Shown here: positions 4,849 to 45,275 of the stretch, piece after piece
How the letters are laid out: each line of letters opens with the position of its first letter
Position numbering within the stretch: the stretch's first letter is position 1
Assembly: GCA_030873995.1 (NCBI GenBank)
Contig: GCA_030873995.1_4701.1
Source of the DNA: a phage
Length of the DNA stretch: 45,609 nucleotides
Strand: one strand, 5' to 3'
Translations under genes and position numbers: made by a program
The notes under the pieces: generated by a model
What the model was told of the DNA's origin: nothing
Databases searched by the model: none
The model's input: the letters and a program-made list of their open reading frames with translations, nothing else

Positions 4849-4871
4849 ATTTACTGGACACTATAGAAGGG
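4849..4871 (+). promoter_or_regulatory. phage-RNAP promoter ATTTACTGGACACTATAGAAGGG (capsid promoter)
   Basis: Exact consensus; +1 G at 4866; followed by 5' hairpin GGGAGAAAAGTTCTCCC (4869..4885). Confidence 0.85.
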
Positions 4872-6130: not shown

Positions 6131-6139
6131 TAACCTATG

Positions 6140-6175
6140 CCCTATCTACCTTGCGTAGGTAGGGTTCTTTTGTTT
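6140..6175 (+). terminator. late hairpin terminator after the capsid gene
   Basis: 10-bp stem CCCTATCTAC/GTAGGTAGGG, 5-nt loop, then TTCTTTTGTTT. Confidence 0.75.
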
Positions 6176-6926: not shown

Positions 6927-9331
6927 TGGAAGTACAAGGCTCTTTAGGTCGTCAGATTCAAGGTATTAGCCAACAACCAGCAGCAGTGCGGTTAGATGGT
7001 CAATGTACTGATATGGTTAATATGGTTCCAGATGTAGTCAACGGTACACAATCTCGCATGGGAAGCACACACATTGCTAGGCTTCTTGATTCTGGTGACG
7101 AAAACATGGCAACACATCATTACCGCAGAGGTGATGGTGTAGAGGAATATTTCTTCATTATGAAGAAAGGTAGCGTGCCAGAAATATTTGACAAAGAAGG
7201 TCGTAAATGCACTGTGACCTCTCAGGATGAACCTATGGCCTATCTTGCTGAGGTTGTGAACCCGAGAGAAGACGTGCAGTTCATGACTATTGCTGATGTA
7301 ACATTTATGCTTAACAGGCGTAAAGTAGTGAAAGCTCGTAGTGATAAGTCTCCAAAGGTGGGAAACAAGGCTATTGTGTTTTCTGCCTACGGGCAGTATG
7401 GCACTTCGTACACTATCTCTATTAACGGCGAGCAAGCGGCGACCTTCAAAACTCCAGATGGAAGCGACCCTAGTCATGTAGAACAGATTCGCACTGAGTA
7501 CCTAGCAACTAAGCTATATGAGAGTTTACAGACATGGAGTAAAGCGTCACAGTACACCTTGCAAAGAGAAGGCACTAGTATCTACATTGAAACTAAAGAT
7601 GGTAGTGATTTCACTATTACTACTACAGATGGGGCCAAGGGTAAGGACTTGGTTGCCATAAAGAACCGAGTGTCATCTACAGACTTACTTCCCTCAAGAG
7701 CACCAGAAGGGTACAAGGTACAGGTGTGGCCTACAGGGAGTAAACCAGAATCTCGGTATTGGCTAGAGGCTGTACCTAAAGAGGGAGGTAACTTAGTTGC
7801 TTGGCAAGAAACTATTGCAGCAGATGTGTTACTTGGCTTTGATAAAGACACTATGCCTTATATTATAGAGCGTACAGGGATTGTCGGAGGTGTGGCACAG
7901 TTTAAGATACGACATGGCGATTGGGAAGACCGTAAGGTAGGCGATGACCTGACTAACCCTATGCCTTCCTTTATTGATGAAGATGTACCACAGGCGATTG
8001 GTGGTATGTTCATGGTGCAGAACCGTCTTTGTGTCACAGCAGGAGAAGCTGTCATAGCAACTAGGACTTCTCACTTCTTTGACTTCTTCCGCTTCTCCGC
8101 AGTGTCTGAGGTTGCAACAGATCCTTTTGATATTTTCTCAGATGCAAGTGAGGTCTACCAGCTCAAACATGCAGTAACCCTAGATGGGGCAACGATATTA
8201 TTCTCAGACACATCTCAGTTCATACTTCCTGGGGATAAAGTATTAGAGAAATCTAATGTCATACTCAAGCCTGCTACAACTTTCGAAGTGGATAATAGGG
8301 TGTCACCTGTGGCAACTGGTGAATCCGTGATGTTTGCTACAAGTGAAGGTGCTTACTCTGGTGTGCGTGAGTTTTATACCGACTCTTACAGCGACACTAA
8401 GAAAGCACAGGCTGTTACTAGTCATGTTAACAAGTTGATAGAAGGTAATATAACTCATATGGTTGCTAGCACTAATATCAACAGGTTACTTGTGGTAACA
8501 GACAGGGACCCTAATATTGTCTATTGCTATGACTGGTTGTGGCAAGGGACAGATCGTGTACAATCTGCATGGCATAAGTGGGTGTGGCCTAAAGATACTT
8601 TGATTCGCTCTATGTTCTATTCCTCAGAGGTATTGTATCTCCTTGTAGAACGAGGTAATACTGGTTTGTATCTAGAGGTGATGGATATGGGTGATGCTCT
8701 TACTTATGGTTTAGTTGACAGAATTAGACTGGATAGGCAAGCAGAGTTGATCTTCACCTATGATGCTAATACAGACCAGTGGGTTTCTAATGAGTTGCCT
8801 TGGAAGCCTACTGACCCAGCCTTACTTGAGTGTGTGATAATTCAAGGGTGGCCTGCTTATATTGGTGGTTCTTTTCATTTTGAATATGATGAAGCCAGTA
8901 ATAAGCTAATTACAACTTTTGATTTATCAGAAGAAGGCACTAATGCTATAGCTGTCGTAGGGCAGTTGTATCAGCAGGAGTTTGAGCCAACACAGGTCGT
9001 TATTCGAGATAACCAAGATAGAGTGTCCTACATAGATGTGCCAGTGGTAGGCCTAGTTCACCTTAACTTGGATAAATACCCTGACTTTGAAGTTCATATC
9101 AAGAACTTAAAGAGTGGCAAATTAAGAAAGGCTTTGGCATCTAACAGGAAAGGCGGGGCACTTAATAATGTTGTTGGTTATGTCAAGCCAGAAGAGGGGT
9201 CATTCAAATTTCCACTAAGATCCCTTAGTACAGATACTGTTTATCGTATCATTGTTAACTCCCCTCATACATTCCAACTCAGGGATATTGAGTGGGAAGG
9301 TTCGTATAACCCAACTAAGAGGAGGGTATAA
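6926..9331 (+). CDS. tail tubular protein B (gp12-like)
   Basis: 801 aa, size and position as T7 gp12. Confidence 0.8.
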   Translation: MEVQGSLGRQIQGISQQPAAVRLDGQCTDMVNMVPDVVNGTQSRMGSTHIARLLDSGDENMATHHYRRGDGVEEYFFIMKKGSVPEIFDKEGRKCTVTSQDEPMAYLAEVVNPREDVQFMTIADVTFMLNRRKVVKARSDKSPKVGNKAIVFSAYGQYGTSYTISINGEQAATFKTPDGSDPSHVEQIRTEYLATKLYESLQTWSKASQYTLQREGTSIYIETKDGSDFTITTTDGAKGKDLVAIKNRVSSTDLLPSRAPEGYKVQVWPTGSKPESRYWLEAVPKEGGNLVAWQETIAADVLLGFDKDTMPYIIERTGIVGGVAQFKIRHGDWEDRKVGDDLTNPMPSFIDEDVPQAIGGMFMVQNRLCVTAGEAVIATRTSHFFDFFRFSAVSEVATDPFDIFSDASEVYQLKHAVTLDGATILFSDTSQFILPGDKVLEKSNVILKPATTFEVDNRVSPVATGESVMFATSEGAYSGVREFYTDSYSDTKKAQAVTSHVNKLIEGNITHMVASTNINRLLVVTDRDPNIVYCYDWLWQGTDRVQSAWHKWVWPKDTLIRSMFYSSEVLYLLVERGNTGLYLEVMDMGDALTYGLVDRIRLDRQAELIFTYDANTDQWVSNELPWKPTDPALLECVIIQGWPAYIGGSFHFEYDEASNKLITTFDLSEEGTNAIAVVGQLYQQEFEPTQVVIRDNQDRVSYIDVPVVGLVHLNLDKYPDFEVHIKNLKSGKLRKALASNRKGGALNNVVGYVKPEEGSFKFPLRSLSTDTVYRIIVNSPHTFQLRDIEWEGSYNPTKRRV

Positions 9332-10056: not shown

Positions 10057-12999
10057 ATGGCAATTGAACGTCAAGCTGTACAAGGTTTAGAAAGAGTACA
10101 GTCAAGGGGTGCGCCAATGCCTATGTCTTTCACACCACGACAAGTGAGTATCTCAGGGGGCGCTGATGCCTCCGGTAGTAGATTTTTGGAAGACTTAGTA
10201 AACGCCGCAAGTAGTGTGGCTGATGTCACTACTGCTATCCTTAATCAGCAAGTAGAAGACGATAAGGTTCGCCAGATGGATAGGGCTTTGTCTGGCATGA
10301 TGCCTTCTGAGGATGCCACGGTAGGCGGTGCTCGTGCTCATATGCTGGTTAGTTTACAAAATGATGTAATCGCACAGACAACTGCGCTACAAGCAGAAGC
10401 ACAGCGATTTCAAGGTAGTGACGAGGATTGGGAAAACTATGTAGTTCAATCTCGTAATGAGGTACAAAATAGGTTATGGCAAAGTTATCCAGAGCTTCGT
10501 GGTGACAAAGATTCTATGAGGCTTGTCACTAACGCGTTCATGGAGCAGCAACCTAGAATTACTGCAACTAGAGCAGAGGCTAAACTTCGTCAAGAAGAAG
10601 AAGCACGAATGCAATCTATGCAGTCTCGTATTATCATGGCTACAAGGGACGTAGCGCCAGATGCCACTGGTGCAGCTCTTATCCAGCTACAAAAAGAAGC
10701 ACTGGCGATGGGTCTTAGTAAACCTGAGTTTGATCAAATGGTTGCTAAGATTGCATCTGAAAGAGCGGCAGTAGGAGATGATAGTCTTATTCAGGGAACC
10801 AAGGCATTGGTGGATGATAAGGGTGTCTCTTTGTATGACCGTGTTGGTGCTTTGCAAACTGGAGAAATTCAAGCTAACAGAACTTGGGCTGCTCAGAATC
10901 AGGTTGCCCTCTTCGAGAAGAAAGATGCAGCTATAAAGGCATTCGATGCAGGGCAACTTACTCGCGAAGAGTTACTTCAGGTGATGCAGAATCACAATGA
11001 ATTGACTGGTGGCACTGCTTGGTCTGATAGCGAGATCAAGGCTATCTTCGATAGGCAAGCTAAGGTTAATGCAGAGAAAGCAAAGCTAGAAGATCTTATT
11101 GCACGAGGTGAATCTGGGTCGCCTTTAGGCTTACAGGACATTAGTAAGGATGACAGAAAGACATATGCTGAAGCCTTAGTTAGTACCTACACTAAGCTGG
11201 CAGAAGATGAAATTGCCCGTACTGGTGCAACGGGAGAACAGGCTGAAGCTATTCGCGGTAGGTATGAGCAGATGCGTTATCTTAAATTGGGTCAACAGCT
11301 TATTGAAGACCCGATCATTAAGGAAAGGTATTCGTCGCTTATGCAGCTATCCTCTGCCAACCTCAAGGATATGAATGTTGAACCTGAAGCACTGCAAACT
11401 ATCATGCGAGCACGTGATTCTATTCCAGAGGATGCACGTCGTGCTGTTATGGGAGACAAAGAATATGCCTTTGTTGAGAACTATGACTTAGCAACTCGCA
11501 TGGGGTATAACACAGGTCAAGCTATTGAGTTTGCACAGAATGCCTCTCGCGGCGAGAAATTACAAGGTTCTGTGCTCAAAGAACTTAATGATGATGTAGA
11601 TGGAGTAGTTAGTGACATTGCAGGAGGCAGCTGGCTCACTTTTGGTGATAACATGAGTGAAATGGGACGTGACATTATGATGGAGGAGGCAAGTACAATT
11701 GCTAGAGCAATGAAGGTTGCAGGCCATAATAATGACACTATTAAGCGTCACCTTAAATCCTACCTTACAAGCCAGTATACACAATTATCAGAAGGTTTCT
11801 TTACTCAAGGTGTTCTTGTAAAAGGAGACATTCGTACGTTAGGAGATACTATAGGAGTAAACCAAGGAGACGTCCCAATTACTCTCCGTCAGTACCTAGA
11901 TAATAACAAACAAGCCCTGCTAGATGCATCAGGTGGGTTAGAGGAAGGCGACCTATATTTTGATGTAGATGCGAAGCGCGGCCTCTTTACTATACGTGCA
12001 GGCTCTGGTCGTGTGCCTGTTACACAGGCAATGCCTTTGTCTGAAATCAAAGGGCAATCCTTGCTTAAGCAACGGTATGATGCAGAGGTTAAAGCACGTG
12101 ATGAAGGGCGTAAGAACTTTGAAGCACAACAAATGCGAATGTGGGGCGCAGGTGGCTACCAAGCACAACCACCTGCAAAGACTACAGCCAAAACTGTAGG
12201 CTCACGTGGGATTGCTGACTTCTTAATGTCACCTGCCTTTGCATCAGGCGAGAATCTACCAGCAAACTTTGAGTTCGGATATAAGAGAAATAATATGGAC
12301 TTCTACAATTATGTAGCCAAGATGGAGAATAATGCCAATGTAGGTTTTGACCGAGTAGCTGGTGTTTATACACCATACAAAGATGCACATGGTCAGTCTG
12401 TAGGGTACGGTCACTTCCTTACTACTGAAGAGAAGAAGAACGGATACATTATGATTGGTACAGAGAAAGTGCCATTCACTCCGGGACAATCTCAATTAAC
12501 ACCAGAACGAGCCATGCGCCTTCTACAGCAAGACTTGAAGAGTCATGTGCCAAGTACTTCAGGATGGGCTGTTCCCTTCGAAGAGATGCACCCAGGTGTT
12601 CAGCGTGGCCTTATGGACTTGTCCTATAATTTAGGAAAAGGCGGGATCCAGAATGCTCCTAAGGCATACGCTGCATTTAAGGCTGGCAAGTTTACTGATG
12701 GCTTCATCGAGATGCTATCTACTGCATCTACTGAAGGCAAGCGCAGCACTGGATTGTTAGTTCGTAGGGCGGAAGCTTATAACCTTGCACAGAGTGGTGG
12801 TGCTATCCCTAAGATTAGTGAAGTGGAGACACGAGCAGATGGATCTATGTATGTGAAGTTTGCAGGACAGATGTCAGAGGCTTTCGTAAATAAATCAATC
12901 TACAATCAGATTGGTAAGGATGGGTGGATGCAAGTGTATCCTCCAAAGCAAGGTGCACTTGCACCTAACACTCAGATTGGTAGAATCAAACTGAGCTAG
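10057..12999 (+). CDS. internal virion protein (gp15-like) with C-terminal T4-lysozyme-like (GH24) domain
   Basis: 980 aa; region GQSVGYGHFLTTEE...GVQRGLMDLSYNLGKGG aligns to the T4 lysozyme core as recalled. Confidence 0.7.
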   Translation: MAIERQAVQGLERVQSRGAPMPMSFTPRQVSISGGADASGSRFLEDLVNAASSVADVTTAILNQQVEDDKVRQMDRALSGMMPSEDATVGGARAHMLVSLQNDVIAQTTALQAEAQRFQGSDEDWENYVVQSRNEVQNRLWQSYPELRGDKDSMRLVTNAFMEQQPRITATRAEAKLRQEEEARMQSMQSRIIMATRDVAPDATGAALIQLQKEALAMGLSKPEFDQMVAKIASERAAVGDDSLIQGTKALVDDKGVSLYDRVGALQTGEIQANRTWAAQNQVALFEKKDAAIKAFDAGQLTREELLQVMQNHNELTGGTAWSDSEIKAIFDRQAKVNAEKAKLEDLIARGESGSPLGLQDISKDDRKTYAEALVSTYTKLAEDEIARTGATGEQAEAIRGRYEQMRYLKLGQQLIEDPIIKERYSSLMQLSSANLKDMNVEPEALQTIMRARDSIPEDARRAVMGDKEYAFVENYDLATRMGYNTGQAIEFAQNASRGEKLQGSVLKELNDDVDGVVSDIAGGSWLTFGDNMSEMGRDIMMEEASTIARAMKVAGHNNDTIKRHLKSYLTSQYTQLSEGFFTQGVLVKGDIRTLGDTIGVNQGDVPITLRQYLDNNKQALLDASGGLEEGDLYFDVDAKRGLFTIRAGSGRVPVTQAMPLSEIKGQSLLKQRYDAEVKARDEGRKNFEAQQMRMWGAGGYQAQPPAKTTAKTVGSRGIADFLMSPAFASGENLPANFEFGYKRNNMDFYNYVAKMENNANVGFDRVAGVYTPYKDAHGQSVGYGHFLTTEEKKNGYIMIGTEKVPFTPGQSQLTPERAMRLLQQDLKSHVPSTSGWAVPFEEMHPGVQRGLMDLSYNLGKGGIQNAPKAYAAFKAGKFTDGFIEMLSTASTEGKRSTGLLVRRAEAYNLAQSGGAIPKISEVETRADGSMYVKFAGQMSEAFVNKSIYNQIGKDGWMQVYPPKQGALAPNTQIGRIKLS

Positions 13000-17838: not shown

Positions 17839-17991
17839 ATGATTAACTCCGAACTGGTAGATAATGGTGTGAAGCTTGCGCCACCTGCACTCGTATCAGG
17901 TGGGTACTTCCTCGGTATCAGTTGGGATAACTGGCTCGTAATTATGACCCTTATTTACACAGTAATGCAAAATGGGTTGGTTTATTTATGA
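17839..17991 (+). CDS. holin, T7 gp17.5-like
   Basis: 50 aa, one TM segment; GGYFLGISWDNWLVIMTLIYTVMQNG resembles the T7 gp17.5 core as recalled; AAGGAGGTGGG RBS. Confidence 0.6.
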   Translation: MINSELVDNGVKLAPPALVSGGYFLGISWDNWLVIMTLIYTVMQNGLVYL

Positions 17992-18027: not shown

Positions 18028-18459
18028 ATGTACTCAGAAGTTGAAAGAGCAGGATACATCATAAGAGAAGATGGTGTTATCTTGAGCAAGAAGGGACAAC
18101 CGATGGTTGGTGCTATTCGTGAAAGAGGATACCGCACAGTAACATTAAGGATAGATAATAAATCCAAGACTTATAAAGTACATAGGTTGACTGCATGGAA
18201 GCATGTGCCGAACCCTCATAACTATAAGGTTGTTAACCATAAAGACCGCAACCCATCTAATTGCCATAAAGATAACCTAGAGTGGTGCACTCAACAGGAA
18301 AACACTATACATGCACACTATGGTTGTCTTGACATACAAGATAAAATAGATGAAGCCAAAGCATTAAGAAGCCAAGGCTGGTCTTATCCTAAAATCGGTA
18401 AATACTTTGGGTTAGACCATAAGACTGTTTGGTATTGGATTAATGGGAGAAGAACTTGA
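18028..18459 (+). CDS. HNH homing endonuclease
   Basis: 143 aa; motif HKDRNPSNCHKDNLEWCTQQEN; inserted between holin and terminase small subunit. Confidence 0.75.
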   Translation: MYSEVERAGYIIREDGVILSKKGQPMVGAIRERGYRTVTLRIDNKSKTYKVHRLTAWKHVPNPHNYKVVNHKDRNPSNCHKDNLEWCTQQENTIHAHYGCLDIQDKIDEAKALRSQGWSYPKIGKYFGLDHKTVWYWINGRRT

Positions 18460-18755
18460 GCGTACATAACAAACATGCAGCTACAGAAGACGAGGTTGGC
18501 ATTCTGCATGGTGCTATTACCAAAATCTTCAATAAGAAAGCACAGGCAATACTGGACACTATAGAAGAAGACCCTGATGCAGCACTACATTTAGTCTCTG
18601 GTAAAGACATTGGTGCTATGTGTAAGTGGGTACTGGATAACGGCATCACTGCTACACCTGCTGCACAGCAGGAAGAGTCCAAGTTATCTAAGCGCCTCAA
18701 GGCTATCCGAGAGGCATCCAGTGGTAAGATAATTCAATTCACTAAGGAGGATTGA
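18456..18755 (+). CDS. terminase small subunit (gp18-like), start codon uncertain (TTG)
   Basis: 99 aa ORF immediately upstream of and overlapping the terminase large subunit. Confidence 0.5.
   Translation: MSVHNKHAATEDEVGILHGAITKIFNKKAQAILDTIEEDPDAALHLVSGKDIGAMCKWVLDNGITATPAAQQEESKLSKRLKAIREASSGKIIQFTKED
18547..18569 (+). promoter_or_regulatory. phage-RNAP promoter inside the terminase small subunit gene
   Basis: CAATACTGGACACTATAGAAGAAG; matches consensus from -14 to +6, diverges at -17 to -15. Confidence 0.55.
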
Positions 18756-20653
18756 TGGCTAAGGCAAGAGAATCACAAGCGGAGGCTCTTGCCAGATGGG
18801 AGATGCTACAGGAGTTACAGCAGACCTTTCCTTACACAGCGGAAGGTTTGCTTCTCTTTGCAGACACAGTTATTCATAACTTGATTGCAGGCAACCCTCA
18901 TCTGATTCGTATGCAGGCTGATATCTTGAAGTTCCTATTCTACGGACACAAGTACCGCCTCATCGAAGCGCCTCGTGGTATCGCTAAGACAACACTATCA
19001 GCAATCTATACGGTATTCCGTATTATTCATGAACCGCATAAGCGTATCATGGTTGTGTCCCAAAACGCCAAGCGAGCAGAGGAAATCGCAGGTTGGGTAG
19101 TTAAAATCTTCCGTGGCTTAGACTTTCTTGAGTTTATGCTGCCGGATATCTACGCTGGGGACCGTGCATCCGTTAAGGCGTTTGAGATTCATTACACCCT
19201 ACGTGGTAGTGATAAGTCTCCTTCTGTATCCTGTTACTCAATCGAAGCAGGTATGCAGGGTGCTCGTGCTGATATTATTCTAGCGGATGACGTAGAGTCG
19301 ATGCAGAATGCTCGTACGGCAGCGGGCCGTGCCTTGCTTGAGGAACTGACTAAGGAGTTTGAATCTATCAACCAGTTTGGGGATATCATTTACCTTGGTA
19401 CACCTCAGAACGTAAACTCTATCTACAACAACCTACCTGCTCGTGGTTACTCTGTTCGTATCTGGACTGCGCGTTACCCTTCAGTAGAGCAAGAGCAATG
19501 TTATGGCGACTTCCTTGCACCTATGATTGTTCAAGATATGAAGGACAACCCAGCACTTCGCTCAGGGTACGGGTTGGATGGTAATAGTGGTGCACCTTGT
19601 GCCCCTGAAATGTATGATGATGAAGTCCTGATTGAGAAGGAAATCTCTCAGGGTGCTGCTAAGTTCCAGCTTCAGTTCATGCTTAACACTCGCATGATGG
19701 ATGCTGACAGATACCCATTACGCCTGAACAATCTAATCTTCACCTCGTTTGGTACAGAGGAAGTCCCTGTGATGCCTACGTGGAGTAATGATTCCATAAA
19801 CATCATTGGTGATGCACCTAAGTATGGTAACAAGCCTACGGATTTCATGTACAGACCTGTAGCTCGCCCATACGAATGGGGTGCTGTCTCCCGCAAGATT
19901 ATGTATATTGACCCTGCGGGTGGTGGTAAGAACGGAGATGAGACGGGTGTAGCCATCATATTCCTGCACGGCACATTCATTTATGTGTATCAGTGCTTTG
20001 GTGTACCTGGCGGATACCGAGAGTCGTCCCTGAATCGCATTGTGCAGGCCGCAAAGCAGGCGGGTGTTAAAGAGGTATTCATTGAGAAGAACTTTGGTCA
20101 TGGAGCGTTTGAGGCGGTAATTAAGCCGTACTTTGAACGAGAGTGGCCTGTAACTCTGGAAGAGGATTACGCCACCGGACAGAAAGAGTTGCGTATCATT
20201 GAGACGCTGGAGCCGCTCATGGCAGCCCATAGGCTTATCTTCAATGCAGAGATGGTGAAGTCAGACTTTGAGTCGGTACAGCACTATCCGCTTGAACTAC
20301 GCATGTCCTACAGTCTTTTCAATCAAATGTCGAACATAACGATTGAGAAGAACAGCCTCCGGCACGATGACCGCCTAGACGCCCTGTATGGCGCTATACG
20401 GCAATTAACTTCTCAGATAGACTATGACGAGGTTACACGGATTAATCGCCTCAGAGCGCAGGAGATGCGCGATTACATCCATGCTATGAATACACCTCAT
20501 CTACGCAGGGCAATGCTATATGGAGATTACGGTACTGAGCGAAGAGTGACCAACACTTCCGTAGCGATGCAGCAGCGAGTTTACGGGCAGAACTGCCGAA
20601 ATAAATCGGCAAGCAGAAATACACTTTCTGCAAGGATTTCAAGGACTTATTAA
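18755..20653 (+). CDS. terminase large subunit
   Basis: 632 aa, T7 gp19-like; AAGGAGG RBS; start overlaps upstream stop. Confidence 0.9.
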   Translation: MAKARESQAEALARWEMLQELQQTFPYTAEGLLLFADTVIHNLIAGNPHLIRMQADILKFLFYGHKYRLIEAPRGIAKTTLSAIYTVFRIIHEPHKRIMVVSQNAKRAEEIAGWVVKIFRGLDFLEFMLPDIYAGDRASVKAFEIHYTLRGSDKSPSVSCYSIEAGMQGARADIILADDVESMQNARTAAGRALLEELTKEFESINQFGDIIYLGTPQNVNSIYNNLPARGYSVRIWTARYPSVEQEQCYGDFLAPMIVQDMKDNPALRSGYGLDGNSGAPCAPEMYDDEVLIEKEISQGAAKFQLQFMLNTRMMDADRYPLRLNNLIFTSFGTEEVPVMPTWSNDSINIIGDAPKYGNKPTDFMYRPVARPYEWGAVSRKIMYIDPAGGGKNGDETGVAIIFLHGTFIYVYQCFGVPGGYRESSLNRIVQAAKQAGVKEVFIEKNFGHGAFEAVIKPYFEREWPVTLEEDYATGQKELRIIETLEPLMAAHRLIFNAEMVKSDFESVQHYPLELRMSYSLFNQMSNITIEKNSLRHDDRLDALYGAIRQLTSQIDYDEVTRINRLRAQEMRDYIHAMNTPHLRRAMLYGDYGTERRVTNTSVAMQQRVYGQNCRNKSASRNTLSARISRTY

Positions 20654-20674
20654 TTACTGGACACTATAGAAGGA
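20652..20674 (+). promoter_or_regulatory. phage-RNAP promoter after terminase
   Basis: AATTACTGGACACTATAGAAGGA; +1 G at 20669. Confidence 0.8.
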
Positions 20675-24398: not shown

Positions 24399-26582
24399 AT
24401 GCTTCAAAGATTAGGGGCAATGTTTGTTCGGTACAAAAATAAAGTAGGTAATGCTATCGAGCGTACACTACAAAGTAAATTACAGGATGTAGTAAGTGTA
24501 AAGGATTATGGCGCTATTGGTGATGGAGTATATCGTTCACTTGGTGCTAAATTTACCACGTTAAGTATGGCACAAGTAGTATACCCGCATGCGGAAAGTT
24601 TAACTCAATCGCAAGATTGGGCGGCTATTCAGGCTGCACTTAATTCTCACTCAAAAGTGTACATTCCAGCAGGTAAGTACATGCTATCTGATACCATTGA
24701 GATGCGCGGCGGTCAAACTCTGCAAGGTGACGGTATTGATTCTTGGGTTGCAGGTTATGCTGGGTTTGTAAAAGATAATCAAGGCACTCACCTCATAATG
24801 GTGGGAGATGGAAATAAGAAGTATACATTAGATCATGTATCTAACTTCGATGTAGAAGGTGGTGTCATAGACAACCCAGCGAAGAGTGATGCTTATACTG
24901 CCACTGCACCTTCCCCTAATTACTCATTTACTAACTTCACTAACGCTAACGCCTCTGGTGCACAACGTGCTACATTGAAACCTTTCAGCGTAGCATTACG
25001 TTGCACAGGTCACGGTGGTGTTTATCTTCGTGACTTCCGTATTGTGCCTAATCACAGAGGGCAAGAAGGTTATAAGGATGAGTTGTCAACTGCATTAGGG
25101 GACGCATGGGATGTAGGTATTTGGCTGGAGAATACATCTGACTCAGTGTTATCTTCTGTGCAAGCAGTTGGTTACTGGCGTATTGCAGGTGTTATGAAGA
25201 CTTGTATTCCACAAGAGGGTTCCTTTGTTGGTGGAGAGCGTGATAGGATATACAATTGCACATTACAAGGTTATCGTGGTTTCTTAGCACGTTCGCATGA
25301 TACTTACCAAGTAGAAGAAGTATCAGGTAACACTGTATCGATTAAGTGGTCTGCATCTCACACTTTCGAACCTTCTGGTAAAGTTCGTATCCAAGGGAAA
25401 GACCGTAGTTATACTAGCCTGTCTGTATCTGGTGACAAATTAGTCTTCAATGGTATTGACGATGTATCAGGTATTAATACCAATAGCTATGTGAGAGTTT
25501 CAGGGTCTTCATTCGGAATGTCTGCTACTCAACTAAATAACACATACATCGCTGCATTAAACCATCATGCTCGCTTGCCAGCAACCTCTAATCTTTTAGA
25601 TAATAGGTTTTCTACTTCGGCAGCTTGCTATGAAGTTGCAGGTGAACCAATTCGTGCCATAAAATTATCTAACTGTACTGTCATTACTTGGGATGACATC
25701 TTAGGTATGACTGGTGGTATTCGGGATTTCCAGACGACAGATACTTACTTCGAGTCTCAGCCTTTCCGTACTTCTGTGCAAGGCTTGGCAAGCACCACAC
25801 AACCTGCTGGTTCTCGCATGATTGCACTTCGTGGACGTCAAGGTTCTAAAACTACAGGATATCAAGCTATCGGTTGTACTTATGGGCCAGGTGTAGACTT
25901 AAGTCCTCGTTATGAAAGCGATGTATCTCGTTACACAACTTCAGGTGGTATGTTCAATCCAAGAGAAGATTTGAACACAACTAAGCAGTTACCAATGAGG
26001 CAAGACGCTACTGAGCTATCTTCTACTTCTGACTTATTCCTTACACATGCTGTAGGGCGGAAGGCCTATGTTGGCGCTACCTCTGGTGATGCAACGCTTC
26101 AATCTAGAACTGGATCATTGAATATCCAATCAGGACTTCGTGTACGGATTGGTGGCACTGATGGTAGTGGTTGGTATATTGCTGACAGTGCTAAGTTGAC
26201 ACCTACTGCTGACAATGCAAGGGCTTGTGGACAGCCTAATGGACGATGGACTGTTGTCTATGCTGTTAATGGTACAATCCAGACTTCTGATGGTAGATTC
26301 AAGGAAATCCTTGAGATTGAACAGGCAGAACTTGATGCTGGTCTTGAATTATCAGCAAACCTAATTAAGTATCGGTGGAATGGGGAAGATAAAATTCACT
26401 TTGGTTGCATAGCACAAGAAGTGATGTTAATACTGGAGAAACATGGCCTAGACCCATTACAATATGATATGGTTCAGTATGATGAGGAGGCAGACATCTT
26501 TGGGGTAAACTATGCTGAACTCAACAGCTTCTGTATTGCAGCATTATCGAGGAAGTTAAATGCCATTAATAAAATCAGTTAA
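24399..26582 (+). CDS. tailspike 2 with C-terminal intramolecular chaperone (peptidase S74-like) domain
   Basis: 727 aa; VKDYGAIGDG signature; C-terminal SDGRFKE...HFGCIAQE; AAGGAGG RBS. Confidence 0.75.
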   Translation: MLQRLGAMFVRYKNKVGNAIERTLQSKLQDVVSVKDYGAIGDGVYRSLGAKFTTLSMAQVVYPHAESLTQSQDWAAIQAALNSHSKVYIPAGKYMLSDTIEMRGGQTLQGDGIDSWVAGYAGFVKDNQGTHLIMVGDGNKKYTLDHVSNFDVEGGVIDNPAKSDAYTATAPSPNYSFTNFTNANASGAQRATLKPFSVALRCTGHGGVYLRDFRIVPNHRGQEGYKDELSTALGDAWDVGIWLENTSDSVLSSVQAVGYWRIAGVMKTCIPQEGSFVGGERDRIYNCTLQGYRGFLARSHDTYQVEEVSGNTVSIKWSASHTFEPSGKVRIQGKDRSYTSLSVSGDKLVFNGIDDVSGINTNSYVRVSGSSFGMSATQLNNTYIAALNHHARLPATSNLLDNRFSTSAACYEVAGEPIRAIKLSNCTVITWDDILGMTGGIRDFQTTDTYFESQPFRTSVQGLASTTQPAGSRMIALRGRQGSKTTGYQAIGCTYGPGVDLSPRYESDVSRYTTSGGMFNPREDLNTTKQLPMRQDATELSSTSDLFLTHAVGRKAYVGATSGDATLQSRTGSLNIQSGLRVRIGGTDGSGWYIADSAKLTPTADNARACGQPNGRWTVVYAVNGTIQTSDGRFKEILEIEQAELDAGLELSANLIKYRWNGEDKIHFGCIAQEVMLILEKHGLDPLQYDMVQYDEEADIFGVNYAELNSFCIAALSRKLNAINKIS

Positions 26583-30482: not shown

Positions 30483-33110
30483 ATGCAAGACCTACACGCT
30501 ATTCAACTTCAACTTGAAGAAGAAATGTTTAACGGAGGTATCCGTCGCTTTGAAGCGGACCAACAACGCCAGATTGCATCCGGTAATGAATCCGACACGG
30601 CATGGAATCGCCGCTTATTGTCTGAGTTAATCGCGCCAATGGCTGAAGGCATTCAGGCATACAAGGAAGAGTATGAAGGTAAAAGAGGCCGTGCACCGCG
30701 TGCATTAGCTTTCATTAACTGCGTAGAAAACGAAGTGGCAGCATATATCACGATGAAAATCGTTATGGATATGCTGAACACGGATGTAACCTTGCAGGCT
30801 ATAGCCATGAATGTAGCTGACCGCATTGAGGACCAAGTACGTTTTAGCAAGCTGGAAGGTCACGCCGCCAAATACTTTGAGAAAGTTAAGAAGTCACTTA
30901 AGGCAAGTAAGACTAAATCATATCGCCATGCGCACAACGTAGCGGTCGTGGCTGAGAAGTCAGTAGCTGACCGTGACGCTGATTTCTCTCGCTGGGAGGC
31001 GTGGCCTAAAGATACCTTGCTACAAATCGGTATGACCTTGCTAGAAATACTGGAAAATAGTGTATTCTTCAATGGTCAGCCTGTCTTTCTTCGCACCTTG
31101 CGCACTAATGGTGGCAAGCATGGCGTTTACTACTTACAGACTAGCGAACACGTGGGTGAATGGATAACTGCATTTAAAGAGCACGTAGCTCAGCTGAGTC
31201 CAGCCTATGCGCCTTGCGTTATTCCTCCTCGTCCGTGGGTTTCTCCGTTTAATGGTGGCTTCCATACCGAGAAAGTGGCGAGTCGTATTCGTCTGGTTAA
31301 AGGAAACCGCGAGCACGTCCGCAAGCTGACCAAAAAGCAAATGCCAGCGGTTTACAAGGCTGTTAACGCTTTGCAGGCGACTAAGTGGCAGGTTAATAAA
31401 GAGGTTTTGCAGGTAGTAGAGGACGTTATCCGTCTCGACCTTGGTTATGGTGTGCCTTCCTTTAAACCGCTCATCGACCGTGAGAACAAGCCAGCTAATC
31501 CAGTGCCGTTAGAGTTCCAGCACCTGCGAGGCCGTGAACTTAAAGAGATGCTAACGCCGGAACAATGGCAAGCCTTCATCAACTGGAAAGGCGAATGTAC
31601 CAAGCTGTATACCGCTGAAACTAAGCGCGGCAGCAAGTCGGCGGCAACCGTTCGTATGGTCGGGCAGGCCCGTAAATACAGCCAGTTTGACGCAATATAC
31701 TTCGTGTATGCACTGGATAGCCGTTCACGCGTTTATGCGCAATCTAGCACGCTCTCGCCGCAATCAAACGACTTAGGCAAGGCATTGCTCCGTTTTACCG
31801 AAGGGCAGCGTCTTGATAGCGCTGAGGCGCTTAAGTGGTTTTTGGTGAACGGGGCGAATAACTGGGGTTGGGATAAGAAAACTTTTGACGTGCGCACCTC
31901 TAACGTGCTGGATGGCGAATTTCAAGACATGTGCCGCGACATTGCAGCCGATCCGCTGACCTTCACTCAATGGGTAAATGCTGATTCCCCTTACGGCTTC
32001 CTTGCATGGTGCTTTGAATATGCGCGTTATCTGGATGCACTGGATGAAGGCACGCAAGACCAATTCATGACGCACCTACCCGTCCATCAAGACGGTAGTT
32101 GCTCTGGTATCCAGCACTATAGCGCGATGTTACGCGATGAAGTAGGTGCGAAAGCAGTAAACCTTAAGCCTTCTGACTTCCCTCAAGATATTTATGGCGC
32201 GGTTGCGCAGGTTGTTATCCAGAAGAATTACGCCTACATGAATGCAGACGATGCAGAGACTTTCACATCTGGAAGCGTCACACTTACAGGTGCAGAACTG
32301 CGTAGCATGGCTAGTGCGTGGGATATGATAGGAATAACTCGCGGATTGACCAAAAAGCCCGTAATGACACTACCTTATGGCAGCACACGTCTAACCTGCC
32401 GTGAATCAGTGATTGATTATATCGTTGATTTGGAAGAAAAAGAGGCCCAACGAGCTATTGCGGAAGGGCGTACCGCCAATCCTGTACACCCTTTTGATAA
32501 TGACCGTAAGGACAGCCTGACACCTAGCGCAGCTTATAACTATATGACAGCTTTAATCTGGCCTTCTATTTCGGAAGTGGTTAAAGCTCCTATAGTGGCA
32601 ATGAAAATGATTCGTCAGCTTGCCCGTTTCGCAGCTAAAAGGAATGAAGGCTTAGAGTATACCTTGCCTACTGGCTTCATCTTGCAACAAAAGATTATGG
32701 CTACTGATATGCTCCGCGTATCCACTTGCCTGATGGGAGAAATCAAGATGAGTCTACAGATTGAAACGGACGTAGTGGATGAAACGGCTATGATGGGCGC
32801 TGCTGCTCCTAACTTTGTGCATGGTCATGATGCCAGTCACCTTATCTTAACAGTCTGCGACCTTGTTGATAAAGGGATTACATCTATCGCAGTCATTCAT
32901 GATTCTTTCGGTACTCACGCAGGCCGTACAGCCGATCTTCGTGATAGCTTAAGGGCAGAAATGGTGAAGATGTATCAAGGCCGTAATGCCCTGCAAAGCC
33001 TGTTAGATGAGCATGAAGAACGCTGGTTAGTAGACACCGGAATCCAAGTGCCAGAGCAAGGAGAGTTTGACCTTAACGAAATCTTAGTATCTGACTATTG
33101 CTTCGCATAA
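30483..33110 (+). CDS. single-subunit DNA-dependent RNA polymerase (T7/SP6 type)
   Basis: 875 aa; [17 protein letters not shown] and HDSFGT catalytic motifs; C-terminus ends CFA. Confidence 0.95.
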
Positions 33111-33385: not shown

Positions 33386-33408
33386 ATTTACCGGACAGTA
33401 TAGATAAG
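33386..33408 (+). promoter_or_regulatory. phage-RNAP promoter (origin-flanking, downstream copy)
   Basis: ATTTACCGGACAGTATAGATAAG; G at -5; palindrome 33365..33380 abuts it. Confidence 0.6.
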
Positions 33409-33565: not shown

Positions 33566-35554
33566 ATGGCTATTATTCAGAATGTACCGTGTCCTGCTTG
33601 CCAAAAGAACGGACATGATATTACTGGCAATCATTTAATGATCTTTGACGACGGGGCAGGGTACTGTAACCGTGGTCACTTCCATGATAACGGTAAACCT
33701 TATTACCACAAGCCGGAAGGTGGCATCGAGATAACCGAGTTACCTATTACTGGCAATATCAAATATACACCTTCTCAATTCAAAGAAATGGAGAAGGAAG
33801 GGAAGATAAGCGACCCTAAGCTACGCGCCATCGCACTTGGTGGTATGCGTATGAAAGACCGTTGGGAGGTTATGAATGAGCAAGAAAGGGCAGACCAAGA
33901 AGCAGAGTGGAAACTTGATGTTGAATGGTTCCTCACGCTTAAGCGTAAGAACCTTGTATCCCGTCACATTCGAGGTGACATCGCAGCAATGTACGATGTG
34001 CGCGTTGGACACGATGAAGAGGGAAGAGTCAACCGTCACTATTATCCACGATATGAAAAGGGTGTGTTTGTTGGAGCAAAATGCCGGACGTTGCCGAAGG
34101 ATTTTAAGTTCGGACACCTAGGTAAACTCTTTGGTATGCAAGACCTTTTCGGTATGAACACTTTGTCTCACGTGTTAGACAAGGGGAGACGAAAGGATTG
34201 CTTGCTTATTGTAGGCGGTGAACTTGATGCACTAGCAGCGCAGCAGATGCTCCTTGATTCTGCCAAAGGTACTAAGTGGGAAGGTCAGCCATACCATGTA
34301 TGGTCTGTCAATAAAGGTGAGTCTTGCCTTGAAGAGATAGTGCAAAACCGTGAGCACATAGCCCAATTCAAGAAGATTATATGGGGCTTTGATGGCGACG
34401 AGGTGGGGCAGAAGCAGAACCAACAAGCTGCTCGCCTGTTTCCTGGCAAATCCTACATCCTCGAATATCCATCTGGTTGCAAAGATGCTAACAAGGCATT
34501 GATGGCTGGCAAGGCTAAAGAGTTTGTAGATGCATGGTTTAATGCCAAGTCATCTGATGAAGTCTTTGGTAGCCAGATTAAATCTATCGCATCTCAAAGG
34601 GATAAGCTCAAGGCTGCACGTCCAGAGCAAGGACTATCATGGCCTTGGCCTAAGCTGAACAAGGTAACGCTAGGTATTCGTAAGAACCAACTTATCATTG
34701 TAGGCGCAGGCTCTGGTGTAGGTAAGACTGAGTTCCTTCGTGAAGTAGTTAAGCACCTCATTGAAGAACACGGTGAATCTGTAGGCATCATTTCTACAGA
34801 AGACCCGATGGTCAAGGTGTCCCGTGCTTTTATCGGCAAGTGGATTGATAAGCGTATTGAGTTACCGCCAACCAACGACCCGAAAGAAGATGGATACCGT
34901 GAGGTGTTCGACTACACCGAGGAAGAGGCTAACGCCGCCATTGATTATGTAGCTGATACAGGTAAGCTGTTTGTAGCTGACCTAGAGGGTGACTATTCGA
35001 TGGAAAAGGTAGAGCAAACTTGCCTAGAGTTTGAGGCTATGGGCATTTCTAATATCATCATTGATAACTTAACGGGGATTAAATTAGATGAGCGTGCTTT
35101 TGGTGGGAAGGTTGGTGCACTTGATGAATGCGTCAAGCGGATTGGTACTATCAAAGACCGACACCCGGTTACTATATTCCTTGTATCACACCTTACACGT
35201 CCTCCGGCAAACCGTACCCAACACGAAGAAGGTGGCGAGGTTATCCTTTCTGACTTCCGAGGTTCAGGCGCTATCGGATTCTGGGCATCTTACGCCTTGG
35301 GGATTGAGCGTAATACAAGAGCTGAAACGCTTGATGAACGGACTACCACGTACATCTCATGTGTCAAAGACCGCGACCAAGGTATCTACACTGGAACCAA
35401 GGTCATGCTTAAGGGTGACATTCAAACCGGACGTTTAATGGAACCACAAGCCCGTACTAAGTCATTTGATACAGGTGAAGCAAGGCAACAAGAAGTGCCG
35501 GATTTACCGGACACTATAGAAGAGACAACTTTTGACGATGAACAGGAGTTTTAA
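33566..35554 (+). CDS. DNA primase/helicase (gp4-like)
   Basis: 662 aa; N-terminal Cys4 zinc ribbon, Walker A GAGSGVGKT; acidic C-terminus ending DDEQEF. Confidence 0.9.
   Translation: MAIIQNVPCPACQKNGHDITGNHLMIFDDGAGYCNRGHFHDNGKPYYHKPEGGIEITELPITGNIKYTPSQFKEMEKEGKISDPKLRAIALGGMRMKDRWEVMNEQERADQEAEWKLDVEWFLTLKRKNLVSRHIRGDIAAMYDVRVGHDEEGRVNRHYYPRYEKGVFVGAKCRTLPKDFKFGHLGKLFGMQDLFGMNTLSHVLDKGRRKDCLLIVGGELDALAAQQMLLDSAKGTKWEGQPYHVWSVNKGESCLEEIVQNREHIAQFKKIIWGFDGDEVGQKQNQQAARLFPGKSYILEYPSGCKDANKALMAGKAKEFVDAWFNAKSSDEVFGSQIKSIASQRDKLKAARPEQGLSWPWPKLNKVTLGIRKNQLIIVGAGSGVGKTEFLREVVKHLIEEHGESVGIISTEDPMVKVSRAFIGKWIDKRIELPPTNDPKEDGYREVFDYTEEEANAAIDYVADTGKLFVADLEGDYSMEKVEQTCLEFEAMGISNIIIDNLTGIKLDERAFGGKVGALDECVKRIGTIKDRHPVTIFLVSHLTRPPANRTQHEEGGEVILSDFRGSGAIGFWASYALGIERNTRAETLDERTTTYISCVKDRDQGIYTGTKVMLKGDIQTGRLMEPQARTKSFDTGEARQQEVPDLPDTIEETTFDDEQEF
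35502..35524 (+). promoter_or_regulatory. phage-RNAP promoter embedded in the primase/helicase C-terminal coding tail
   Basis: ATTTACCGGACACTATAGAAGAG, encodes DLPDTIEE. Confidence 0.75.
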
Positions 35555-35748: not shown

Positions 35749-35787
35749 AGGCTCTTATTAAGTACATTAAATAACTGGAGATTGATT

Positions 35788-36471
35788 ATGTATAAATTAG
35801 TATTGAATGTAGGTGATTATGTTCGTAACATCAATGAAGCCTCACGTCGTTATCGTTGCCGTGGTGTAGTGGCTCGTGTAAGTGAGAACATGTATCATGT
35901 AGAATATGATGATGGTATTAAGGCTTCTTATCACAAGAAAACCGCACATAAATATCTTGAAAAGGTTGTAGAGGTAAACAATCAATGTAAGTGCATACAT
36001 GATGAGGTTTGCGATAAATGTGCTCGCCAGATGCTTAAGAATTTCCTAGCCCCTCTTTATTATGGTGCTGGTCCTCAAACACTAGCAGAGTACATGGCAG
36101 AAAAGAAAACCACACTCAAGAAAGAGCGTCGCAATGTAATCACTGGTAAGACTCAAAGTGGGATGATTAAGCAATGTGGCACTGCATTAGGTGTTACACA
36201 GTTCAATACTCGTGCATTGGGTAAATCCACAGGGCAAGCTATGGTGAAAATTGGTGAAGCTATGATGCACCCAAATGTGCCTGTGCGAATCTTGGATGTT
36301 GACCATGCAATCACAGAGCATGGCACACCACGGCGTGTAGCTAATAATCATTTCGCCGACACTATAGAAGGTATTATTCGTAAGCAAGGGTTGAAGGGTC
36401 TTCACATCTTAAATGGTGAAGAATTACTGTACCTACCTATCGTTACTGAAGAAACATACGTGAATATCTAA
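35788..36471 (+). CDS. hypothetical protein (227 aa)
   Basis: GGAG RBS before ATG 35788; Cys cluster CKCIHDEVCDKC; contains a degenerate promoter-like site. Confidence 0.55.
   Translation: MYKLVLNVGDYVRNINEASRRYRCRGVVARVSENMYHVEYDDGIKASYHKKTAHKYLEKVVEVNNQCKCIHDEVCDKCARQMLKNFLAPLYYGAGPQTLAEYMAEKKTTLKKERRNVITGKTQSGMIKQCGTALGVTQFNTRALGKSTGQAMVKIGEAMMHPNVPVRILDVDHAITEHGTPRRVANNHFADTIEGIIRKQGLKGLHILNGEELLYLPIVTEETYVNI
36350..36372 (+). promoter_or_regulatory. degenerate promoter-like site inside CDS 35788..36471
   Basis: ATTTCGCCGACACTATAGAAGGT; four mismatches at -13 to -10. Confidence 0.25.
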
Positions 36472-36481
36472 GGAGTTAATC

Positions 36482-36700
36482 ATGACTAAGGTATTAATTT
36501 ATATGCGTGGACCTCATAAATGCTATGCAGTTGTAGCACCAAATGGCGTTAAGCCTTATCGTACTTCAAAAAGATTGGCATTAATAGGTGCTAGTAGTAG
36601 TGCAAGTTTCCAAATGGAACTTTTTGGTCATTGGACTGAAAGGCAATTCCGTGAGGATTTTAAAGTCATTGGCAGTTTCATGGTGAAATATGCAGAATAA
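36482..36700 (+). CDS. hypothetical protein (72 aa)
   Basis: AAGGAG RBS. Confidence 0.5.
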   Translation: MTKVLIYMRGPHKCYAVVAPNGVKPYRTSKRLALIGASSSASFQMELFGHWTERQFREDFKVIGSFMVKYAE

Positions 36701-44275: not shown

Positions 44276-45275
44276 ACTTCGTAGCCTTTATAAAGACTCC
44301 GAGGTGCTTGATGCAATCGAGCAAGCTACCGACGAGAAAGGTAATGTTAACTATAATGAGATGGCGAAGATCCTATCTAGCCACCCTGTGGGTAAGAAGA
44401 TCACCCGTCAACTTGCTCGGTATTGGCATGGTCAATTTAAGAAGACCAAGAAGAATGGCGATTACTACCAGACTCTTCTGCAAGAGGATAAGCGTATCAA
44501 AGAAGAGCGTAAGCTCAGGACTCCTGACCGCTACGAGGATTTGGCTATTGTACCATTGCCTGACTCGCCTCATCGAAGTGTACTGGTAATCCCTGATACT
44601 CATGCACCTTATGAGCACCCAGATACCCTAGAGTTCCTTGCAGCCGTGGCGGCACGTTACCGTCCAGACACAGTGGTACACCTAGGAGATGAGGCAGACA
44701 AACATGCCCTGTCATTCCACGATTCGGACCCAAATCTGGATAGTGCTGGCATGGAGCTAGAGAAGGCTCGTGTCTTCATGCACAAGTTGCACAAGATGTT
44801 CCCTGTGATGCGCCTGTGTCATTCTAATCACGGCTCTATGCACTTCCGTAAGGCAAGCGCCAAGGGTATTCCAGTGCAATATCTTCGCACCTACCGTGAA
44901 GTCTTTTTCCCAAATGGAGGTGGCGACCAGTGGGATTGGCAGCATACACATGTTCTTGAGTTGCCGAATGGTGAACAAGTGGCATTCAAGCATCAACCTG
45001 CTGGCTCTGTCCTAGCAGATGCAGCGCATGAGCGTATGAACCTTGTGTGTGGTCACTTGCACGGTAAGATGTCTGTGGAGTACGCACGTAATACACATGA
45101 ACAGTATTGGGCTGTGCAAGGTGGCTGCTTAATTGATGAGTCATCCCGTGCATTTGCCTATGGGCGTGAGTCTAAATACAAGCCAGCATTAGGTTGTGTG
45201 GTTATTCTGGAGGGTGTACCTCATATTGTCCCGATGCAAACCAATAGCGACAACCGTTGGATTGGCAAGATTTAG
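44268..45275 (+). CDS. calcineurin-like metallophosphoesterase with about 100-aa N-terminal extension
   Basis: Motifs IPDTH, GDEAD, SNHG, GHLHG; AAGGAGG RBS 7 nt before GTG 44268. Confidence 0.65.
   Translation: MAKLRSLYKDSEVLDAIEQATDEKGNVNYNEMAKILSSHPVGKKITRQLARYWHGQFKKTKKNGDYYQTLLQEDKRIKEERKLRTPDRYEDLAIVPLPDSPHRSVLVIPDTHAPYEHPDTLEFLAAVAARYRPDTVVHLGDEADKHALSFHDSDPNLDSAGMELEKARVFMHKLHKMFPVMRLCHSNHGSMHFRKASAKGIPVQYLRTYREVFFPNGGGDQWDWQHTHVLELPNGEQVAFKHQPAGSVLADAAHERMNLVCGHLHGKMSVEYARNTHEQYWAVQGGCLIDESSRAFAYGRESKYKPALGCVVILEGVPHIVPMQTNSDNRWIGKI

Follow-up and report, generated by a model that had tools for sequence, protein, structure and literature searches.

Putative promoters for the phage's own RNA polymerase embedded in three genes of a Vectrevirus genome

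The contig GCA_030873995.1_4701.1 (assembly GCA_030873995.1; 45,609 nucleotides, referred to below as the window) is a circularly permuted 45.6-kb Vectrevirus genome (Autographiviridae, Molineuxvirinae; K1-5/K1E group) in which every gene lies on the + strand. Three sequences that resemble the promoters of this phage are located within its coding sequence: one in terS, the gene of the small terminase subunit, one at the 3' end of the primase/helicase gene, and one in an open reading frame (ORF) of unassigned function, the gp10-like ORF. These sites are probably promoters for the phage's own single-subunit RNA polymerase that overlap the coding sequence and constrain it. An initial annotation had pointed to the three sites and predicted internal transcripts for the terminase and downstream genes; its coordinates, strand and reading frames are correct, as established by reading the sequence and by ORF arithmetic (Table 1). 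Only the terS site concerns the terminase, and the other two precede small ORFs and then, further downstream, the DNA polymerase gene.

The promoter specificity of Vectrevirus is ATTTAC[T/C]GGACACTATAGAAG, with the shared core GACACTATAG and a G at +1. Ten other promoters in the window read this sequence, with the variants AATTA, AGCT and AGTT, and a position-weight matrix built from them was used to scan both strands. The scan reveals 13 sites with scores of 19.8-38.5 bits, all of them in the orientation of the genes, and no other sequence in the genome exceeds 11.0 bits. The full promoter proposed previously in the primase/helicase gene is confirmed as a sequence match, with a score of 37.6 bits (rank 3) and one mismatch (C at -11) that is also present in two accepted promoters. 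The terS site scores 25.9 bits (rank 12). Its positions -14 to +4 are identical to the consensus and the bases at +5/+6 (AA) fall within the A/G variation of the other promoters, and the earlier description of a perfect match from -14 to +6 (21-mer at 18550-18570) is a fair one. The degenerate copy in the gp10-like ORF is also recovered, at 19.8 bits (rank 13). Additionally, the 13-mer GACACTATAGAAG with at most two mismatches occurs 15 times, compared with 1.5 expected, and 14 of these occurrences are on the + strand. The SP6-type polymerase encoded by the ORF at 30483-33110 is expected to recognize these promoters.

All 23 nucleotides of each site lie inside the host gene on the sense strand, and the three genes are backed by family matches or orthologues. 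The terS site is read as CTG GAC ACT ATA GAA GAA (LDTIEE), the primase/helicase site as GAT TTA CCG GAC ACT ATA GAA GAG (DLPDTIEE) and the gp10-like site as GCC GAC ACT ATA GAA GGT (ADTIEG). The three sites therefore have a common reading frame, GAC-ACT-ATA-GAA (D-T-I-E). This shared frame was considered as evidence and rejected as uninformative because a TAG stop closes one of the two alternative frames, so that only two frames are open. All three sites are found in each of the seven complete Vectrevirus genomes that were mapped.

The case for a promoter read by the phage's own polymerase is strong for the primase/helicase site. This site is in the last 53 nucleotides of the gene, its +1 lies 35 nucleotides before the end of the stop codon, and the ATG of the next ORF (35555) overlaps that stop. 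It would thus serve as the ordinary gene-start promoter of the next transcription unit, with initiation at 35519 and a leader of 35-36 nucleotides in which AGGAG precedes the ATG. The promoter cores of six other lineages were identified from their most repeated 11-mers, and the primase/helicase tails were then compared. In all seven lineages, the phage's own promoter is present at the orthologous place in the tail, in the same frame and with the +1 located 29-44 nucleotides before the stop. The only constant part of the seven peptides is I-E-[E/Q], which is encoded by the shared ATAGAAG (Table 1). The arrangement is kept in seven lineages while the peptide changes with the core, which argues strongly that the promoter dictates the peptide of the primase/helicase tail; the earlier suggestion that these promoters constrain protein sequence is supported by this co-variation.

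The closest comparison is with SP6, in which the promoter at 8411-8433, at the 3' end of gene 10 (primase/helicase), is the positional orthologue of the site at 35502. The two share the reading frame, a similar distance to the stop (29 and 35 nucleotides, respectively) and the identical core GACACTATAGAAGAG. They differ at -12 to -10, where SP6 has GGT (the classic SP6 promoter is ATTTAGGTGACACTATAGAAG) and the window has CCG/CTG, so that the SP6 peptide contains Gly in place of Pro. Outside the promoter, the tails end in acidic residues with a terminal or near-terminal aromatic residue (...EQEF, ...IEEF, ...SEY). The gene 4 protein of T7 has a similar tail, which contacts the DNA polymerase. 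The promoter may therefore occupy a sequence-tolerant linker before the C-terminal acidic residues and the terminal Phe.

An alternative, which we regard as unlikely, is that only the primase/helicase site works and that the terS and gp10-like sites are inactive look-alikes, in which the peptides ILDTIEE and ADTIEG are selected and the resemblance to a promoter is a by-product or a decayed relic. Peptides do occasionally regenerate promoter-like DNA by chance: when synonymous codons were resampled with all proteins kept, 0.21 intragenic hits of at least 19.8 bits were obtained per genome. Three are observed, which corresponds to a Poisson P of ~1e-3. The codons of the recurring peptide also differ from what selection on the peptide alone would predict. 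DTIE occurs four times in the proteome, and the three occurrences at the promoter sites all use GACACTATAGAA (probability ~0.016 each under the codon usage of the genome), whereas the only one that is not at a promoter-like site, at 24690, is written in wholly different codons, GATACCATTGAG. On the codon choice and the resampling result, the recurring element at these sites is the DNA sequence, beyond the peptide that it encodes. Selection at the nucleotide level is thereby indicated for the primase/helicase site by the co-variation of the peptide and for the whole set by the choice of codons.

The distribution of the terS site also argues against a look-alike. The terS-terL region is 98.9% identical to that of Escherichia phage EC120 and ~96% identical to that of K1-5, and all Vectrevirus loci examined carry the site (K1-5, K1E, EC120, KAW1A4500, CrRp3, 101117UKE2, Raoultella P3a, 12 IMG/VR contigs and 5 metagenome contigs). 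The surrounding 34-mer is found in ~76 phage records, mostly unchanged. Among the terS loci compared, the site is absent from SP6, the SP6-like IMG/VR contigs, Klebsiella Kpp-61, Pectobacterium PP1, Proteus PM116, Klebsiella ZK1 and Erwinia Era103. The outgroup peptide is AILDAIEE, AILAAVEE or similar and is written in other codons, for example, ATC CTC GAT GCT ATC GAG, whereas Vectrevirus has ATA CTG GAC ACT ATA GAA. The six changes (ATC to ATA, CTC to CTG, GAT to GAC, GCT to ACT, ATC to ATA and GAG to GAA) are all towards the promoter consensus; five are synonymous, GCT to ACT (Ala to Thr) being the exception, and two create ATA, the least-used Ile codon in the genome (16%). Furthermore, positions -12 to -9 of the terS site read ACTG, the version specific to Vectrevirus, and not the AGGT of SP6. 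A metagenome scan for all possible codings of FNKKAQAILDTIE returned five contigs, all five with the promoter codons, a number that is too small for statistics.

The ancestral-type terS coding stretch already matched the promoter at 12 of 18 positions. The terS site is a derived, Vectrevirus-specific state that probably arose from this partly matching AILDAIEE coding stretch. The support for its function as a promoter for the phage's own polymerase is good but indirect.

In the gp10-like ORF, 10 of the 11 promoter-bearing Vectrevirus sequences share an unchanged core, GCC GAC ACT ATA GAA G (the remaining one has GCA for GCC); this core is kept down to ~75% protein identity, with variation at the flanking synonymous sites. 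The site is missing from the SP6-like contig L037. In SP6 and Kpp-61, the same gene contains a promoter-like (T)ATTACGTGACACTATAGG, displaced downstream by four codons. That two lineages have a promoter-like element at separate codons of one short region suggests a functional need for a start there and counts against look-alikes. The chances that the gp10-like site is active as a promoter appear roughly even. If active, it would probably drive weak transcription of the small genes located before the DNA polymerase gene, with a leader of 115 nucleotides from its +1 to the ORF at 36482.

Several observations weigh against the reading of all three sites as promoters and favor the look-alikes. The terS and gp10-like sites have the two lowest scores of the 13-site set, and the terS site (25.9 bits) is below the weakest training promoter (28.5 bits). 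At -17 to -15, the terS site reads CAA, where all other promoters of the genome have A[A/T]T. This is explained by coding constraint because the mismatches fall on Ala-Ile codons that are conserved across the whole family; in some relatives, a synonymous variant, CTATA, restores the T at -16. The gp10-like site has a perfect core but four mismatches at -13 to -10 (CGCC instead of ACTG). The accepted promoters have ACTG, ACCG, AGCT or AGTT at these positions, and related phages differ in specificity there. In addition, synonymous variation in the footprints is reduced only marginally relative to the rest of the gene (Poisson P of 0.08, 0.05 and 0.05), and 14 of the 94 sliding windows in terS are equally conserved; the sequences used in these tests are closely related and not independent, and the tests do not serve as main evidence. 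Finally, two natural Vectrevirus variants, L008 (GGATAC, synonymous) and L014 (GGGCAC, Asp to Gly), alter the terS core, which is therefore not absolutely required.

A further point on the same side comes from the gp35-like ORF at 10057-12999, in which the peptide LGDTIG at 11837 is kept even in PM116, whose promoters have another core, so that conservation of a peptide alone can yield promoter look-alikes. The DNA at this place, CGTTAGGAGATACTATAGGAGTA at 11837-11859 (+), resembles a promoter relic and was considered as a fourth embedded promoter; it was rejected because it scores only 4.4 bits and because of the conservation of the peptide in PM116. Its counterpart in CrRp3, 101117UKE2 and P3a is CATTAGGTGACACTATAGGAGTA, with SP6-type bases at -12 to -9, and these codons read CGCTAGGTGACACTATAGGTGCC in SP6; the relic differs from the CrRp3 version by two synonymous changes. 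Near 11837, the allele of this ORF shows 88-90% amino-acid identity to SP6 and CrRp3 and 34% to K1-5 and K1E. The ORF is thus mosaic, since this segment resembles SP6 and CrRp3 and not K1-5 or K1E.

If the terS site is a promoter, its position suggests a role in the supply of the large terminase subunit. It is the only promoter-like site detected by the matrix in the 15.8 kb between the promoters at 4849 and 20652, and for this reason its most likely effect is to boost terL mRNA. Transcripts that start at 4849 must read through the terminator-like hairpin at 6139-6165 to reach terS and terL. The ATG of terL overlaps the TGA stop of terS, and the gene has its own Shine-Dalgarno sequence, AAGGAGG, at 18744-18750. 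Transcripts from 18564 would carry terL behind a leader of 191 nucleotides, served by this strong ribosome-binding site, and the terS promoter would top up the large-terminase mRNA at the distal end of the promoterless late stretch. Where relatives carry an HNH gene between the two terminase genes, transcripts from this promoter would include that gene as well.

A comparable role is known from T7, in which phi13 and phi17 are extra late promoters downstream of the capsid-gene terminator that re-supply the distal late genes. Unlike the terS site, phi13 and phi17 are intergenic or overlap only the upstream stop, and both lie outside the terminase genes; between genes 17 and 19, T7 lacks phage promoters altogether.

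It is very improbable that polymerase binding at the embedded sites serves a function other than mRNA synthesis, such as replication priming or, near the terminase genes, concatemer processing and packaging. T7 promoters serve at replication origins, and the T7 polymerase is implicated in concatemer processing. The analogy is with T7 only, and the terS site does lie in the packaging module; however, no AT-rich origin-like region or repeat structure is seen beside the three sites, the comparisons point to no packaging signal, a gene with a ribosome-binding site lies downstream of each site at an ordinary leader distance, and the primase/helicase site is placed exactly like a gene-start promoter. 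The least probable explanation, to which we give hardly any weight, is that the terS copy was brought in by recombination accompanying homing-endonuclease traffic and persists as a passenger: HNH genes do insert on both sides of terS (immediately upstream at 18028-18459 in the window, between terS and terL in EC120, mutPK1A2, ACG-C91 and AAPEc6, and within terL in K1E), but the site is also present in phages without a nearby HNH gene (K1-5, KAW1A4500 and CrRp3), the terS codons on either side align one to one with those of the outgroups, so that there was no insertion, and the data already suggest that all HNH insertions are younger than the promoter state.

A short BLAST match ending at +4 had raised the possibility of an HNH insertion directly after +4 in mutPK1A2. 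This was rejected; terS is intact in that phage, the HNH gene follows its stop codon, and the end of the match reflects ordinary sequence divergence. In the window, the HNH homing-endonuclease ORF (18028-18459, +; Pfam HNH_3 5.8e-8, PHROG 59 6e-35) is located between the holin gene and terS. This insert is absent from K1-5 and K1E, and EC120 has it, unannotated, together with its second HNH gene. The adjacent holin gene (17839-17991) has one extra A in the run at ~17969-17972 relative to EC120 and K1-5, and its ORF stops after 50 codons, compared with 64 in K1-5 and 74 in EC120; the extra A may be either a real frameshift or a homopolymer sequencing error.

Table 1. Embedded sites, genes and related features of the window, followed by the cores and peptides of the primase/helicase-tail sites in seven lineages
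Feature	Position	Strand	Sequence or core	Peptide	Remarks
terS-embedded promoter-like site	18547..18569	+	CAATACTGGACACTATAGAAGAA	(A)ILDTIEE	predicted +1, G 18564
Full promoter in primase/helicase 3' end	35502..35524	+	ATTTACCGGACACTATAGAAGAG	DLPDTIEE	predicted +1, G 35519
Degenerate promoter-like site in gp10-like ORF	36350..36372	+	ATTTCGCCGACACTATAGAAGGT	(F)ADTIEG	predicted +1, 36367
terS, small terminase subunit	18456..18755	+			host of first site; Pfam DNA_Packaging_2 3e-16; PHROG 891 terminase small subunit
Primase/helicase gene	33566..35554	+		C-terminus ...DLPDTIEETTFDDEQEF, then stop	host of second site; Pfam DnaB_C, Toprim_2
gp10-like ORF, function unassigned	35782..36471	+			host of third site; phrog_6703 6e-123; matches K1-5 gene 10 and K1E gene 10; Pfam search without match
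terL, large terminase subunit	18755..20653	+			first complete gene downstream of terS site; Pfam Terminase-T7_RNaseH-like 2.4e-35
Single-subunit phage RNA polymerase gene	30483..33110	+			Pfam RNA_pol 4e-89, RPOL_N 1.5e-31
Consensus late promoter	4849..4871	+			upstream of major capsid gene; last promoter before terS site
Terminator-like hairpin and T-run	6139..6165	+			after capsid gene; KAW1A4500 has an annotated terminator at the same relative place
Promoter at terL end	20652..20674	+	AATTACTGGACACTATAGAAGGA		begins with the final AA of the terL stop TAA
Primase-tail site, source genome (window)			ACCGGACACTATAG	DLPDTIEE	
Primase-tail site, SP6			AGGTGACACTATAG	ELGDTIEE	
Primase-tail site, Klebsiella Kpp-61			AGGTGACACTATAG	DLGDTIEQ	
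Primase-tail site, Pectobacterium PP1			GGGCGGACTATAG	DLGRTIEQ	
Primase-tail site, Proteus PM116			AGAGACCACTATAG	ELETTIEE	
Primase-tail site, Klebsiella ZK1			GTGGCGGGTATAG	PIVAGIEE	
Primase-tail site, Erwinia Era103			CCACCCAGCATAG	ELPPSIEE	

Promoters that overlap coding sequence are already known and are an ordinary feature of T7/SP6-type phages. In the T7 record NC_001604, phi4c is annotated on the sense strand, with its full length inside gene 4 (primase/helicase); it is, like the sites proposed here, a complete promoter for the phage's own single-subunit polymerase inside coding sequence, in this case also that of the primase/helicase. Its upstream edge is off consensus (CAATC...), as is that of the terS site (CAATA), and the annotated T7 promoters phi1.1A, phi4c and phi4.7 also have the C at -17 seen in the terS site; this likeness is an analogy only. 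However, phi4c is 594 nucleotides before the stop of gene 4 and not in the C-terminal tail, and it has the T7 specificity CGACTCACTAAAG; no orthology is implied.

A more limited overlap occurs at stop codons. The TAA stop of the upstream gene supplies the first three bases of the T7 promoters phi1.3, 1.5, 1.6, 2.5, 4.3, 9 and 17, and the same economy is seen at four promoters of the window. The AATTA variants at 20652 and 40515 hold the end of an upstream TAA stop, and the promoters at 45270 (ATTTAGTT) and 29119 (ATTTAGCTGA) include the TAG and TGA stops, respectively, of the upstream gene. The natural variation at -17/-16 and -12 to -8 may thus be largely explicable by coding constraint. Such overlaps cover 2-10 nucleotides, whereas the three embedded sites are entirely inside genes.

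Two other promoter-like sequences are located in or near the polymerase gene. The second promoter after this gene, at 33386-33408 (+), reads GACAGTATAG, with G replacing C at -5; every Vectrevirus genome and PM116 (GACCAGTATAG) retain this substitution at the corresponding promoter, and T7 phi1.3 likewise reads CTCAGTATAG. The antisense sequence GCCACTATAGGAG, at 32587-32599 (-), is inside the polymerase gene and is kept in seven of seven Vectrevirus genomes; it is probably a coding coincidence because its matrix score is only 4.6 bits.

Candidate late promoters were also observed inside the internal-virion-protein genes of ZK1 (L048, reverse-complement 34784), PP1 (L040, 34033) and SP6 (L003, 29393), all at places that differ from that of the terS site; the candidate of the SP6 clade is located in a gp35/36-like gene. 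These observations suggest that internal late promoters turn over across the subfamily. A broader proposal, which we consider evenly balanced between true and false, is that each shift of promoter specificity in the Molineuxvirinae rewrote the primase/helicase tail peptide (PD-T, GD-T, GR-T, ET-T, AG, PS), that internal late promoters also turn over, and that the terS site was born de novo in Vectrevirus.

The three sites are identical or nearly so in K1-5 and K1E, the promoters of which have reportedly been catalogued in earlier papers. No phage promoter is annotated in the GenBank records of K1-5, K1E, SP6, KAW1A4500, EC120, CrRp3, 101117UKE2, Raoultella P3a or mutPK1A2. Full-text literature searches, including one with the promoter string, retrieved no listing of the sites and no start-site data, within a coverage that did not extend to the tables of Dobbins 2004, Scholl 2004 and Shin 2000. 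Two modest points may be worth keeping from the present analysis: the joint change of core and peptide across seven lineages, and the proposed birth of the terS promoter, within a single lineage, in a coding stretch that was already pre-adapted.

The main relevance of these sites is to annotation and engineering, and the accepted picture of transcription in T7/SP6-type phages is unchanged. Recoding, codon optimization or refactoring of terS, the primase/helicase tail or gene 10 in therapeutic phages of the K1-5/K1E type would unknowingly destroy the promoters. The primase-tail series, which spans seven promoter specificities, represents a clean natural example of a regulatory signal that dictates a peptide. 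The terS site plausibly exemplifies the birth of a promoter inside a gene and, if this is true, would provide a dated and reconstructable case.

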